25,656 bases of DNA from a virus (taxonomy: Duplodnaviria > Caudoviricetes): positions 1-25,656 of the IMG/VR virus record IMGVR_UViG_3300033067_000753. One strand, 5' to 3'. Under the pieces are notes generated by a model, which was not told where the DNA came from, ran no database searches, and saw only the letters and a list, made by a program, of their open reading frames with translations. Position 1 is the stretch's first letter, and each line of letters begins with the position of its first letter. Both the position numbers and the translations under genes were made by a program. This document shows, one piece after another, positions 596-6,198 of this stretch.

Positions 596-625
596 TTGAC
601 AATAGGCAATAAATAGCGCTAATAT
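596..625 (+). promoter_or_regulatory. Sigma70-type promoter for the Y-RNA/Ro60 cassette
   Basis: Perfect TTGACA at 596-601, an 18-bp AT-rich spacer and TAATAT at 620-625. The predicted start (~631) coincides with the 5' end of the first RNA stem. Confidence 0.7.
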
Positions 626-629
626 ATGT

Positions 630-698
630 GTGTCAGTGGTGTAGATAACAGATACTTCTTGGCTTTAGAAAAGACTGTTATCGCCTGTTCCCTGATGC
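630..698 (+). ncRNA. Short Y-RNA-like RNA (unit 1, no tRNA module)
   Basis: The ends pair (GTGTCAG 630-636/CTGATGC 692-698; GG/CC; GATAACAG 644-651/CTGTTATC 675-682). Both arms are identical to those of unit 2, and it lies upstream of a TROVE gene. Confidence 0.7.
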
Positions 699-709
699 CT
701 TATCGACAA

Positions 710-857
710 TCGAATAGTGAACGGTGGTGTAGATAACAATTTCATCTCCTATCAAGAGTGAAACGCGGGTTCGAATCCCGCTGACCGAAAGGTCATCGTC
801 TAGTGGCCTAGGACGCATAAAAATCTTGTTATCGCCTGTTCCCCTTTCACTCTTTGA
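710..857 (+). ncRNA. yrlA: YrlA-like Y RNA with a circularly permuted tRNA-like domain (unit 2)
   Basis: Long closing stem (TCGAA/TTTGA, AGTGAA/TTCACT, GG-T-GG/CCCC, GATAACAA/TTGTTATC). It encloses a T arm (GCGGG-TTCGAAT-CCCGC, 765-781), an acceptor-like stem closed by GAAA (TGACC-GAAA-GGTCA, 782-795) and a D arm (GTC-TAGTGGCCTAG-GAC, 798-814). T-before-D order next to a Ro60 gene is the YrlA hallmark. Confidence 0.85.
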
Positions 858-860
858 ATG

Positions 861-892
861 AAACGAGTAGCCATCAGGTTACTCGTTTTTTT
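861..892 (+). terminator. Intrinsic terminator between the Y RNAs and the Ro60 gene
   Basis: AAACGAGTAGCC-ATCA-GGTTACTCGTTT 12-bp stem (one G-U pair) running into a T7 tract (886-892). Confidence 0.85.
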
Positions 893-904
893 ATTGGAGT
901 TGAT

Positions 905-2335
905 ATGGCAAAACTGAACCCGACCGCAGAAGATCGACGCATTGACAAGACGACCCGTTTAGCTGGTGGATTGGGCGCACACGCAGCCGCACAAAGCGCA
1001 GAGGGCTTGCTACGCCGTGCTGTGATGGCTTCCCTGCTATGGGAGGATTTGGCCTACGAATCTGGCGCATCCAGCGCCCAACAGATTGCCGCACTAATTC
1101 CGCAGGTTGCGCCTCATGCCGTTGCCGCAATTGCGCGTGAGGCGCGGATTAACCAGAAACTACGACACACCCCGCTATTCATCGCCCGCGAAATGTTGCG
1201 CCATCCTCAGCACCGTGTCTTAGTGGGCGGCGTGTTGGCCGACATCTGCACGCGGCCCGATATGCTCACCGACTTTCTAGCACTGTATTGGAAGGGCAGC
1301 AAAGATGCGCCAATTGCCAAACAGGTTAAGGTTGGGCTATCGCAGGCCCTTACCCATTTCAATGAGTATCAATTAGCGAAGTGGAATCGACAAGACCGCG
1401 CCGTAAAGTTGCGCGATGTGCTGTTTTTGACCCACGCCAAACCGCAGAACGCTGAACAAGAGGCGATGTGGAAGCGGCTGGCCGAGAACCAATTAGCTAC
1501 ACCCGATACATGGGAAGTTGCACTATCAAGCGGGGCAGACAAAAAGACATCGTGGGAGCGCCTTATCACTGAGGGCAAGTTGCCCGCGCTGGCCTTCCTG
1601 CGCAATTTGCGCGGTATGACACAAGCGGGTGTAGATCGGCGCGTGATTTATAACGGGCTTGCAAAACTGAAATCCTCGTGGTTGTTGCCGCTGAACTTCT
1701 TTAGTGCAGCGCGAGAAGCGCCCGAATACACCAGTGAGATTGAGCAAGCAATGCTGGCGTGCTACTCGCAGCAACAGAAGCTCCCCGGCTGGACGGTGTT
1801 TTTAGTGGATGTGTCTGGATCAATGGGCAAAGAGATCGGTGGTAAATCTACGTTTAAGCGCCTAGATGCCGCGTGTGCAATGGCCGTTCTTGCGCAGGAA
1901 CGCGCTGAACATTGCACCATTTACGCGACAGGTGGAAGCGATGCCGCACGCGGTCACGCTACTGCAAAGGTGAGCGGTTATCGCGGCTTTGGTCTAGCGA
2001 ATGAAATCAACCAATACAAACACGGTGAGCCTAAATCGTTGGGCGGTGGCGGCATCTTTACGCGCCAGTGCTTAGAGTGGATTAAGACAGACCTGAAAGG
2101 GCAAACGCCTGACCGCATTGTGGTGTTCAGCGATTCGCAAGACTGTGATATTGTGAACCGCGTCCCCGCCCCATTCGGCACGCACAACTACATTGTTGAT
2201 GTAAGCGCACACGCGCACGGCATCAATTACGCTGGCGTGTGGGACGCTGAGGTGTCAGGCTGGTCGGAGAAATTTATCGATTTCATTTGCGCGATGGAGG
2301 GTGTAGCCACGCAAGGGGAGGAGGATAGCGAATAG
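905..2335 (+). CDS. rsr: TROVE-domain RNA-binding protein (Ro60/Rsr) with C-terminal vWA domain
   Basis: TROVE-like motifs (LLWEDLAYE, FNEYQLAKW, LRDVLFLTHAKP, PDTWEVALS, LAFLRNLR) and a vWA MIDAS motif (VDVSGSM, VVFSDSQ). The start was moved from 854 to the ATG at 905 (476 aa) because GGAG lies at 896-899 and 854-904 is occupied by the terminator. Confidence 0.93.
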   Translation: MAKLNPTAEDRRIDKTTRLAGGLGAHAAAQSAEGLLRRAVMASLLWEDLAYESGASSAQQIAALIPQVAPHAVAAIAREARINQKLRHTPLFIAREMLRHPQHRVLVGGVLADICTRPDMLTDFLALYWKGSKDAPIAKQVKVGLSQALTHFNEYQLAKWNRQDRAVKLRDVLFLTHAKPQNAEQEAMWKRLAENQLATPDTWEVALSSGADKKTSWERLITEGKLPALAFLRNLRGMTQAGVDRRVIYNGLAKLKSSWLLPLNFFSAAREAPEYTSEIEQAMLACYSQQQKLPGWTVFLVDVSGSMGKEIGGKSTFKRLDAACAMAVLAQERAEHCTIYATGGSDAARGHATAKVSGYRGFGLANEINQYKHGEPKSLGGGGIFTRQCLEWIKTDLKGQTPDRIVVFSDSQDCDIVNRVPAPFGTHNYIVDVSAHAHGINYAGVWDAEVSGWSEKFIDFICAMEGVATQGEEDSE

Positions 2336-5044: not shown

Positions 5045-6198
5045 ACCGCTAACAACTCCAATGAAATATCTTCCGCTGTGTCTGCCGATGCGGTCACGGT
5101 CACAGCCTGAATGCGATGCGTAGTCGATACGCCGTAGTCATACGAAACCACCTTGTCACCCAAGAAATAGTGCAACCCGTAGGCGGTGGTTGGTGTTTGC
5201 ACTGGCCTAAACGTCATCAGCGTTTTGCTGCGCATCTGGTCAAGCGCCACATCGCCTTTCGCGTTTAGCCCTGTCGTGTTGCCTAGCGACAACTCACGCG
5301 CATCCACATAACCCTCTATGTCATTGGTCGCCGCCGCGTAGTTTGTGCCGGTGCGCGACACCCAATCGCGTAGAGACGCATCGCCCGCGCCCCATACGTT
5401 CGCTTGTGTGTATTCAGTTGAGCGCGTGACCTGATAGCGGCTCTCGGCCATGTTGCCACGGTCAGGATTAAATTGCACCTGTGCGCTGCCGGTGGATCGG
5501 TCTGTGCCAAGTTGCCCTAGATACCAGCGGAATTGATACGTGGCCGCGCTCGTTCGCACCAGCCCGAAGTCGCCACCGGCCACACGCGCAACTTTTTTGC
5601 ACGCCTCTAGCACGGACATACCAAACACGCCTACGCTGATTGTGTTACCGCTTGCGCTATCTGCCTGAACCGTAATCGTCGAATAGTTCACCGTCCCTGC
5701 ATTCGTCGCGTTACGCTTGCGCCCGTCGCCAGTTGTGCCGCTTGAGGTCATGTTGTAGGTGACGATGTTTTTGAGAACCGTTTCGCCTTTCGCGCTTGAG
5801 AAATCGTTGCGGTTGTTTGTGCCTGCGGCATAGTCCACGATGCGCCATTGCAACAGGTGTTCATTGCTGTAGCAGATGGCATCAAACGTTGCCACGTCGC
5901 GCCGTTCGAATATCGCATCACGATACACGCCGCTCCAATCCAGTGTCCAGTCAATCCCCAAATCAATATTGCGGCGGTAGACCTCAACGATAGATTTGTC
6001 GCTCAACAGGTTGACAACCGTATGGTCAGCAGGCACGCGGAAGCGGCACACGCCCACATCGTTTACACGTTTGGTGTATGTGAGTTGTTGAAAGCCGCTC
6101 AGTGCCGCAGACGACAAGCTACCCAGCCCGCCGGTCAGTTGCCCTTGCAGCACTCCGGCGGGTGAGTAAATGTCGATGCGGAAGTCGCCTACGCTCAT
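5041..6198 (-). CDS. Siphovirus Gp37-like minor tail (hub/Tal-like) protein
   Basis: 385 aa with NDVGxCRF, YLGQLGTDRS, EGYVDARE and YGLHYFLGDKV motifs typical of ReqiPepy6 Gp37-like proteins; tail module position. Confidence 0.8.
   Translation of the reverse strand: MSVGDFRIDIYSPAGVLQGQLTGGLGSLSSAALSGFQQLTYTKRVNDVGVCRFRVPADHTVVNLLSDKSIVEVYRRNIDLGIDWTLDWSGVYRDAIFERRDVATFDAICYSNEHLLQWRIVDYAAGTNNRNDFSSAKGETVLKNIVTYNMTSSGTTGDGRKRNATNAGTVNYSTITVQADSASGNTISVGVFGMSVLEACKKVARVAGGDFGLVRTSAATYQFRWYLGQLGTDRSTGSAQVQFNPDRGNMAESRYQVTRSTEYTQANVWGAGDASLRDWVSRTGTNYAAATNDIEGYVDARELSLGNTTGLNAKGDVALDQMRSKTLMTFRPVQTPTTAYGLHYFLGDKVVSYDYGVSTTHRIQAVTVTASADTAEDISLELLAV

Follow-up and report, generated by a model that had tools for sequence, protein, structure and literature searches.

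Two tandem Y RNA-like units with a shared, putative Ro60-binding handle beside the rsr gene of a tailed phage

The window analyzed here, the whole stretch of 25,656 nt from a virus of the Caudoviricetes (IMG/VR record IMGVR_UViG_3300033067_000753), carries two tandem RNA units that share one handle as a putative Ro60 site, with a hairpin on one RNA and a circularly permuted tRNA mimic on the other; we give this reading a probability of about 0.8. Judged from sequence, the two RNAs are very probably Y RNAs bound by Rsr, the Ro60 protein encoded next to them.

The RNA units and the Ro60 gene in the window

The features of the locus are as follows.

596..625, + strand: promoter-like site of the sigma-70 type (TTGACA, 18 nt, TAATAT), directly 5' of unit 1, 10/12 match
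630..698, + strand: unit 1, a predicted YrlB-like hairpin Y RNA, assigned from repeats and fold
638-639/690-691 and 640-643/683-689, + strand: GG/CC and the 4x7 internal loop of the unit 1 handle, which also has a lower stem and a bulged U637
644-651/675-682, + strand: upper stem of unit 1 (8 bp), followed by the conserved motif at 652-658; the cargo is a small hairpin with a 7-nt loop that is not anticodon-like
about 718..850, + strand: unit 2, a predicted YrlA-like Y RNA with an 86-nt circularly permuted tRNA mimic, ends inferred
724-739/826-843, + strand: unit 2 handle, the same as that of unit 1
860..896, + strand: intrinsic-terminator-like hairpin (860-889) with a T run, separating the Ro60 gene from the RNA array
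905..2335, + strand: Ro60/Rsr gene (476 aa, with TROVE and vWA); the phage head and tail genes lie on the other strand

The sequence-only reading had reported two exact duplications, and the 15-mer (at 636 and 724) and the 17-mer (at 676 and 827) do each occur twice in the 25.6-kb window and nowhere on its minus strand; exact repeats of these lengths within 451 nt are expected by chance at about 2e-4 and 1e-5, respectively. The flanking pairs said to change between the units do so (G651/C675 versus A739/T826 and A635/T693 versus G723/C844), and the payloads have the sizes given for them, 23 nt (652-674) in unit 1 and 86 nt (740-825) in unit 2. Both units fold as proposed (z -2.67 and -2.66 versus shuffles), and RNAalifold, applied to 35 short units drawn from a set selected by pairing, returned exactly the proposed pairing register of the handle, with changes on both sides in 15 of 16 pairs. 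An alternative register, in which GGYG pairs with a 3' YGYY as in the lower helix of Rfam YrlA, was pairable in 91% of cells, but none of its four pairs was doubly changed and one pair failed in 9 of the 35 units; it was rejected as the main fold and may occur as a minor conformer. A KUWCWUC motif, absent from the earlier description, is conserved directly after the 8-bp stem. The family consensus at this place, UUAC, fits the YUAY conserved in YrlA behind the upper stem, but the window units read AUAC and UUUC.

The Ro60 ORF at 905 starts approximately 55 nt after the RNA units on the same strand, within the 4 kb of a TROVE gene that serves as a criterion for YrlA. Its 476-aa product matched PF05731 at 54 bits (cut-off 23), and its VWA_2 match (E 1.7e-4) fell under that family's own cut-off. 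An AlphaFold model of the protein had a pLDDT of 88, and all 13 of its fold matches at E<=0.001 were Ro60 structures; as modeled, the window Rsr has the Ro60 fold, at 13-21% identity to the solved Ro60s. Human Ro60 matched the Rsr profile only at E 0.029, yet in the model the fold agrees. At least 7561 clusters among 8000 scored were related to Rsr at E<=1e-50, with crAss001 at 52%. The remainder of the window holds phage portal, capsid, and tail genes on the strand opposite Rsr; ARAGORN found no tRNA gene in the window, and a scan of 23 window ORFs turned up no RNA ligase. Identical letters occur in two DNA runs of one study, one of which may be the source sample.

The counts of promoter-like sites (1 found versus 1.5 expected in shuffles) and of terminator-like hairpins did not exceed those in shuffled sequence, and the evidence for 596-625 and 860-889 is their position, which is suggestive. 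Just 3' of rsr, the stretch 2339-2445 holds a second TTGACA-led promoter-like stretch, below the scan threshold, and a terminator hairpin; the approximately 70 nt between them contain no ORF and have a weak Trp-leader match. The two hairpins flanking the region (505-572 and 2416-2452) were found again in further contigs from those DNA runs; in two cases a single contig connects about 565-572 to about 2416-2465, the intervening sequence being unknown. The recurring hairpins and the contigs that join across the cassette hint weakly at an RNA-Ro60 cassette that can be exchanged as an insert between two terminators.

Covariation, distribution, and kinship of the handle

Related loci (158) were gathered, single-protein locus searches having given only 2 and 8 loci. 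A first structural extraction (154 distinct units) had pairing as a requirement and therefore could not test covariation, so selection was repeated blind to pairing, with the 5' motif and the nearest G-N4-UUCC downstream of it as the sole criteria. Across 721 kb in 159 loci, the Rsr strand had 172 5' motifs and the reverse strand 0, and the pairing-blind set comprised 122 distinct units in 58 loci. In these units, the 11 variable pairs were 92% paired, as against 37-47% in slid registers, and the strongest 13 MI-APC signals were all predicted pairs. Because the 5' motif had been drawn from the first loci, a held-out DNA-first search was run, which yielded at least 242 loci among the matches listed, 161 of them of at least 2 kb. 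Among the matches listed for these 161 loci were 94 closed handles, 82 with a TROVE gene on the same strand and 0 with one on the opposite strand, whereas TROVE was found at 12 of the 67 unclosed matches listed; the 182 new units among the listed matches were 86% paired versus 37-42% in slid registers. The covariation first noticed between the two window units is thus borne out among homologues by the 122 pairing-blind and the 182 held-out units, and the tie to TROVE genes appears both from Rsr loci and from the DNA-first search. The handle helices are real, and the tie of the handle to TROVE genes holds across the family. By eye, the 12 closed held-out matches without TROVE, among those listed, divide into six that are chance-like and six that look genuine. 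The latter (L172, L194, L200, L241, L287, and L363) appear to be true single handles; up to 3 kb around them shows no TROVE gene, and their TROVE partner may be farther off or absent.

The family has a fixed frame of a bulged U, two pairs, a 4x7 loop (Y-G-N-A over G-N4-U-U), and 8 pairs, followed by KUWCWUC, whereas the stems, including the upper stem, are free in sequence among relatives. The internal loop had been called fully conserved; this holds between the two window units, but among the 122 relatives, in which the invariant letters are partly imposed by the search motif, the free positions vary, the third loop base being U in 74, A in 28, C in 19, and G in 1, with four variable positions on the 3' side. 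Variants of GG/CC with matching changes exist in the pairing-required extraction. Near-identical upper stems were six times commoner within loci (17 of 114 pairs) than between loci (190 of 7636), so the exact duplication in the window mostly reflects recent copying.

Each locus carries 1-7 units. The order promoter, handles, terminator, rsr would suit a cis-acting leader that controls rsr by autoregulation via the terminator at 860-889, the units then not being free RNAs. Such a role is very improbable: arrays lie upstream or downstream of rsr, often downstream, and some lie over 1 kb off with tRNA genes between, and no handle-terminator pairing was seen apart from a single 15-nt inverted repeat of 80%.

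When the scan was loosened and based on anchors, it gave 303 forward hits outside the ORF and 40 reverse ones, with graded handle variants in crAss-like phages, phage G, a Rhizobium phage, Arthrobacter phage Atuin, and phiLo. In a Bacteroidota sample, 20 of 301 genomes matched the Rsr profile, and 14 of the 18 loci examined had 2-5 closed units downstream of an rsr encoding 513-536 aa; the units have the same geometry with GC/GC or GU/AC in place of GG/CC. Restriction of the handle to the clade of approximately 470-aa Rsr proteins is ruled out by these Bacteroidota loci. Some cargoes downstream of rsr in Bacteroidota (L409-L423) are unusual, one example being a T arm carried on a long hairpin that a GGGGAG/CCCC helix closes. 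In a FastTree phylogeny that gave long-branch warnings and had no animal, Salmonella, or Deinococcus rows, the GG/CC form spans a 117-row Rsr clade that includes the window and occurs outside it in CcrColossus and a Xanthomonas phage. A covariance model built from the 35 short units (R1) found unit 1, a training sequence, and many relatives; it missed window unit 2 and several long units and was therefore left out of the counts.

Several neighboring observations were made in these loci. In crAss001 (L154 5517-6240) and related crAss-like loci, handle variants (UUAGUGUA over UGUUCUA) lie downstream of TROVE, some apparently nested, and at about 5690-5840 of the crAss001 locus a D arm precedes a T arm and is scored as tRNA by Rfam. 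Bacillus phage G (L161 840-990 and 2315-2995) has six units with a UGAAGCGG-type handle. ProQ/FinO RNA-chaperone genes stand beside two arrays (L014 821-1312 and L092 3748-4320). Near arrays, RNA ligase was found in three loci, RtcB in two, and Thg1 in one (130 of 148 listed ORFs, 57 loci); RNA ligase or RtcB lay within about 2 kb in 5 of the 57 loci scanned, a count with no background rate beside it.

Bacterial YrlA and YrlB carry the Rsr-binding motif GNCGAAN0-1G, of which the 5' strand alone can be recognized according to the available parts of Chen 2014 (PMC4201824). Compared with GNCGAAG, the 5' strand GGYGNAG had 0, 1, 2, and 3 mismatches in 5, 61, 53, and 6 of 125 units, respectively; the window motif GGUGUAG has two and is not an instance of the YrlA motif. 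A UUAC-type motif follows the handle at a spacing similar to that in the published YrlA alignment, and three CcrColossus RNAs with this handle are putative YrlAs in Table S2 of the same work, which has B. thetaiotaomicron YrlA in Table S1 and one Y RNA of phage G in its list (PMC4201824, available parts). The Rfam YrlA model (RF02553) gave unit 2 only 17.9 bits against a gathering score of 69, with the handle misaligned; Rfam found no Y RNA family match in the window and no YrlA at gathering score in 20 related loci. The published YrlA of mycobacteriophage Alice also falls under the Rfam cut-off, so the score is a weak test, and the Rfam failure was rejected as proof of novelty.

The earlier proposal of a distinct Ro60-binding handle was not supported: in sequence, the handle is likely a variant of the known YrlA/YrlB docking site and not a separate invention, because it lies 0-3 mismatches from the published motif, is followed by a UUAC-type motif, is borne by listed CcrColossus YrlAs, and shares its Rfam failure with a published YrlA. 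A Ro60 site that evolved separately from the YrlA motif is unlikely. It would account for the Rfam result, for the conservation of the 3' strand here as against the 5' strand alone in the published motif, and for the lack of a bulged base in Alice YrlA. The loop reads CGAA in 5 of 125 units, however, and 66 of 125 are within one mismatch of the published motif, the same UUAC motif lies downstream, and graded variants run through phage G, the Rhizobium phage, crAss-like phages, phiLo, and Bacteroidota.

The modular handle-plus-cargo array is supported by the counts per locus, but its novelty is not, tandem and modular Y RNAs having been published. In the available parts of Chen 2014 (PMC4201824), each of the three species studied has at least two Y RNAs, a tRNA-like one and a hairpin, and M. 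smegmatis YrlA and YrlB come from one precursor upstream of rsr; Y RNAs were termed modular by Wang 2018 (10.1101/312249, available parts). Both the distinct binding site and the modular design are largely anticipated in print. No description of the two-stranded geometry was found in keyword searches and in five of the six Chen supplementary files, whose tables give coordinates and no sequence; the geometry may be drawn in Chen Fig. S1 for a Bacteroidetes YrlA, whose handle is unreadable in the PDF text, or in other literature.

Like YrlA, the units lie beside rsr on the same strand and have a long terminal stem, the arm order T, closed acceptor, D, and a 15:48 pair. Unlike YrlA, they have a fixed frame (bulged U, 2 bp, 4x7 loop, 8 bp), GGYGNAG, and a conserved 3' strand; their "V" arm obeys anticodon-arm rules, and the handle sits on long linkers at the D/anticodon junction. 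As with YrlB of Salmonella and M. smegmatis and Yrn2 of Deinococcus, a second, shorter hairpin Y RNA stands in tandem with a common motif. Unit 1 is a long hairpin in tandem with unit 2 and carries the variant motif; YrlB has a small pyrimidine-rich loop, and 5 of the 7 loop bases of unit 1 are pyrimidines. YrlB homologues were missed in Chen's searches (available parts), whereas short units are the majority here (85 of 153 without a T or D arm). Animal Y RNAs and Deinococcus Yrn1 also combine a terminal stem as handle with a variable effector end; in contrast to them, the bulged-C helix with GGUCCGA is absent from both window units, in agreement with the earlier view that the handle does not resemble the classical bulged-C site. 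A 2026 preprint on three tRNA-mimic families makes no mention of Ro60 or TROVE.

The closest solved relative of the window Rsr is the phage Ro60 of Thermus phage phiLo (E 2e-32, 21% identity), described with Yrl1 and Yrl2 (PMC12135203; PDB 9KOP and 9L5Y). According to the available parts of that source, the phiLo RNAs are stem-bulge-stem structures with a CGAA loop, which together with Ro60 bind and dampen host PNPase; C-to-U and A-to-U changes in CGAA each weakened binding 3-4-fold. That RNA may not be the natural ligand. The RNAs studied were chosen upstream by CGAA, and the downstream sequence is not mentioned in those parts. In phiLo (MH673673.1), we found two units of the handle geometry just downstream of the Ro60 gene (L159 2915-2978 and 3104-3186), with a 1-nt bulge, GG/CC, an internal loop, an upper stem, and GUACUUC; the first matched R1 at 25 bits. 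The stretch taken as Yrl2 folded no better than shuffles (z -0.07), and that taken as Yrl1 had z -4.9. The handle thus suggests that the RNAs tested with the solved phiLo Ro60 may not have been its natural partners.

The tRNA mimic and its anticodon-like arm

The cargo of unit 2 contains the following features.

744..760, + strand: anticodon-like arm, called "V" in the literature; its stem is 744-748/756-760, with 3 of 4 inner pairs
761..781, + strand: variable region (4 nt, C764 = position 48) and perfect T arm
782..795, + strand: acceptor-like stem, closed, 5 bp, GAAA cap, no CCA
796..814, + strand: U8 and D arm (798-801/811-814); 13-22 non-Watson-Crick; G803, position 15, pairs with C764

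The tRNA mimicry proposed for this payload is confirmed, with T arm, closed acceptor-like stem, and D arm in that order and with the tRNA tertiary bases U8, A14, G15:C48, G18/G19, U55, and C56; the tRNA anatomy of the cargo is clear. An 11-nt linker leads from the D arm back to the handle. The 7-nt loop (749-755) has U33, A37, A38, and, at the anticodon place, AUC, which is not a usual bacterial anticodon; ARAGORN called the re-ordered domain tRNA-Asp(atc). Unit 2 is not a canonical tRNA gene with a normal-order cloverleaf and an open 7-bp acceptor.

By pattern search, 153 units comprised 51 with T then D arms, 13 with T only, 4 with D only, and 85 with neither, and these and the following cargo counts are not independent events, the units being related. 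In 50 of 63 long T-arm cargoes, a hairpin began where an anticodon arm canonically lies relative to the T loop; of the 7-nt loops of these 50 hairpins, 41 had U33, 48 a purine at 37, and 41 A38; the corresponding held-out figures, among the matches listed, were 30, 33, and 27 of 36. A strict YU-NNN-RA hairpin occurred in 26 of 70 long cargoes versus 3.5 after loop shuffling. In the 56 loops that had a paired stem and a purine at position 37, G37 followed G36 in 14/14, whereas other bases at 36 were followed by A37 in 40/42 and G37 in 2/42, the pattern that is the rule of real tRNAs; in held-out loops, G37 accompanied G36 in 8/10 versus 2/32 for other bases (A37 in 30/32), among the matches listed. 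Real tRNAs in the same loci had G37 in 15 of 28. Cargoes with a 4-nt variable region had a non-Watson-Crick 13-22 pair in 8/12 versus 1/25, an association to be expected if this segment packs on the D stem. The 15:48 pair was GC or AU in 56 of 61 cargoes, and the linker from D stem to handle measured 8-28 nt. Among short cargoes, 16 of 80 were an isolated anticodon-type stem-loop (0.8 expected), as were 15 of 81 held-out ones among the matches listed (0.75 expected). Anticodons differed in 8/8 loci with two scorable long units; no such locus was present among the held-out matches listed.

In print, this arm is drawn as a variable arm and called V or VL, and YrlA is said to lack an anticodon loop (Chen 2014, PMC4201824; Wang 2018, 10.1101/312249; available parts of both). 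Several rows of Chen's own alignment have, by eye, a CU-NNN-AA loop in that arm (PMC4201824, available parts), and neither an anticodon-rule reading of the "variable" arm nor bare-arm short cargo was found in the accessible parts of the literature examined. An anticodon arm in phage Y RNAs has, from the sequences, apparently been overlooked in print. That the anticodon-like loop is itself under selection is possible, at somewhat less than even odds. There is almost an even chance that the particle is the same and the arm is a relic of repeated re-derivation from tRNA genes, with a functionless loop and a variable arm as published. Such a relic would agree with the real tRNA genes near many arrays; with Salmonella YrlA, which is without the loop and in whose crystal the handle-side stem occupies the anticodon-stem place (10.1101/312249, available parts); with the 13 of 63 T-arm cargoes off the canonical spacing; with the 64 of 80 short cargoes, including window unit 1, that are not anticodon stem-loops in a 4-pair test; and with the excess of A at position 32 (13/56 loops versus 4/125 real tRNAs). 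What a relic would leave to be explained is that U33, a purine at 37, A38, and the G36-G37 coupling are kept though the acceptor is closed and variable in length, that the 4-nt variable region goes with a non-Watson-Crick 13-22 while the 8-28-nt linker parts the D stem from the handle, and that bare stem-loops form whole cargoes at the frequencies given above.

A different account, in which unit 2 is the precursor of a real tRNA whose handle is excised, ends ligated, and acceptor opened, as in permuted tRNA genes, is the least probable of those considered. ARAGORN called 52 of 61 re-ordered cargoes as tRNA versus 8 of 61 as written, a comparison with no scrambled-arm control; M. smegmatis YrlA is cleaved by RNase P and receives CCA (PMC4201824), and the idea was raised by Wang 2018 (10.1101/312249; available parts of both). 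The window acceptor, however, is limited to 5 pairs and lacks CCA, acceptors differ in length, linkers measure 4 and 8-28 nt, A32, A34, and a stop anticodon occur, and many cargoes are fragments. Two GenBank annotations, tRNA-Thr and tRNA-Gln, cover parts of handle-borne cargoes (L155 2241-2308 and L153 2718-2785); because of this overlap, some phage "tRNA genes" are likely Y RNAs.

A predicted Ro60 particle and its meaning

Returning to tandem Rsr-bound Y RNAs, we propose that one precursor of approximately 260 nt would start at the promoter (596-625), end at the terminator (860-889), and be cleaved between the units, as in M. smegmatis, and that partial read-through of the terminator would supply Rsr. 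Rsr would bind each handle by reading the bulged U, GG, and the loop, with the stems setting geometry only, and the cargo would project from the Ro60 ring and engage host RNA enzymes. Candidate partners are PNPase, which known Ro60 particles tether (PMC4201824, available parts), or tRNA-recognizing enzymes engaged via the anticodon-like arm. Against the proposed particle stand the two mismatches of the window motif to GNCGAAG, in view of the weaker phiLo binding after changes in CGAA; the low identity of Rsr to the solved Ro60s; the six genuine-looking handles without TROVE within up to 3 kb; the negative scan of the window ORFs for RNA ligase; and the cargo loops, that of unit 1 not being anticodon-like and that of unit 2 reading AUC.

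Other work, in its available parts, connects Ro60 or phage tRNAs with defense and repair: a Ro60-like gene of phage Bas63 counters Ppl defense (10.1101/2024.10.10.617714); the Salmonella operon responds to tRNA cleavage, and YrlA was suggested as a competitive anticodon-nuclease inhibitor, Salmonella YrlA itself being uncut (Hughes 2020, PMC7790460); phage tRNAs were proposed to counter anticodon nucleases (PMC10264068); and TROVE of jumbo phages was grouped with RNA repair (PMC7824862). A more speculative extension, which we regard as rather unlikely, is a display system, with Ro60 as the scaffold for a set of tRNA mimics and bare anticodon arms whose anticodons differ and which are kept under tRNA loop rules. 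They would serve as decoys for host anticodon nucleases and other tRNA-targeting defenses, or inhibit these competitively, or would guide ligase repair. In sequence, the retained loops would fit this display, which, if true, would explain why phages from crAss001 to CcrColossus carry Ro60.

The function of bacterial and phage Y RNAs, and the reason for their conserved tRNA-like part, are open questions in the available parts of Chen 2014 (PMC4201824) and Hughes 2020 (PMC7790460). A handle defined on both strands provides a search rule for short YrlB-type units that homology searches have missed; it gives 8 units versus 3 in CcrColossus and 6 versus 1 in phage G, as well as arrays in crAss001 and Bacteroidota, and its model names exact bases for mutation. 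If the "variable arm" is truly a maintained anticodon arm, the decoy idea would be directly testable in cultured phages (CcrColossus and crAss001), and the arm would link Ro60 to tRNA-targeting immunity.
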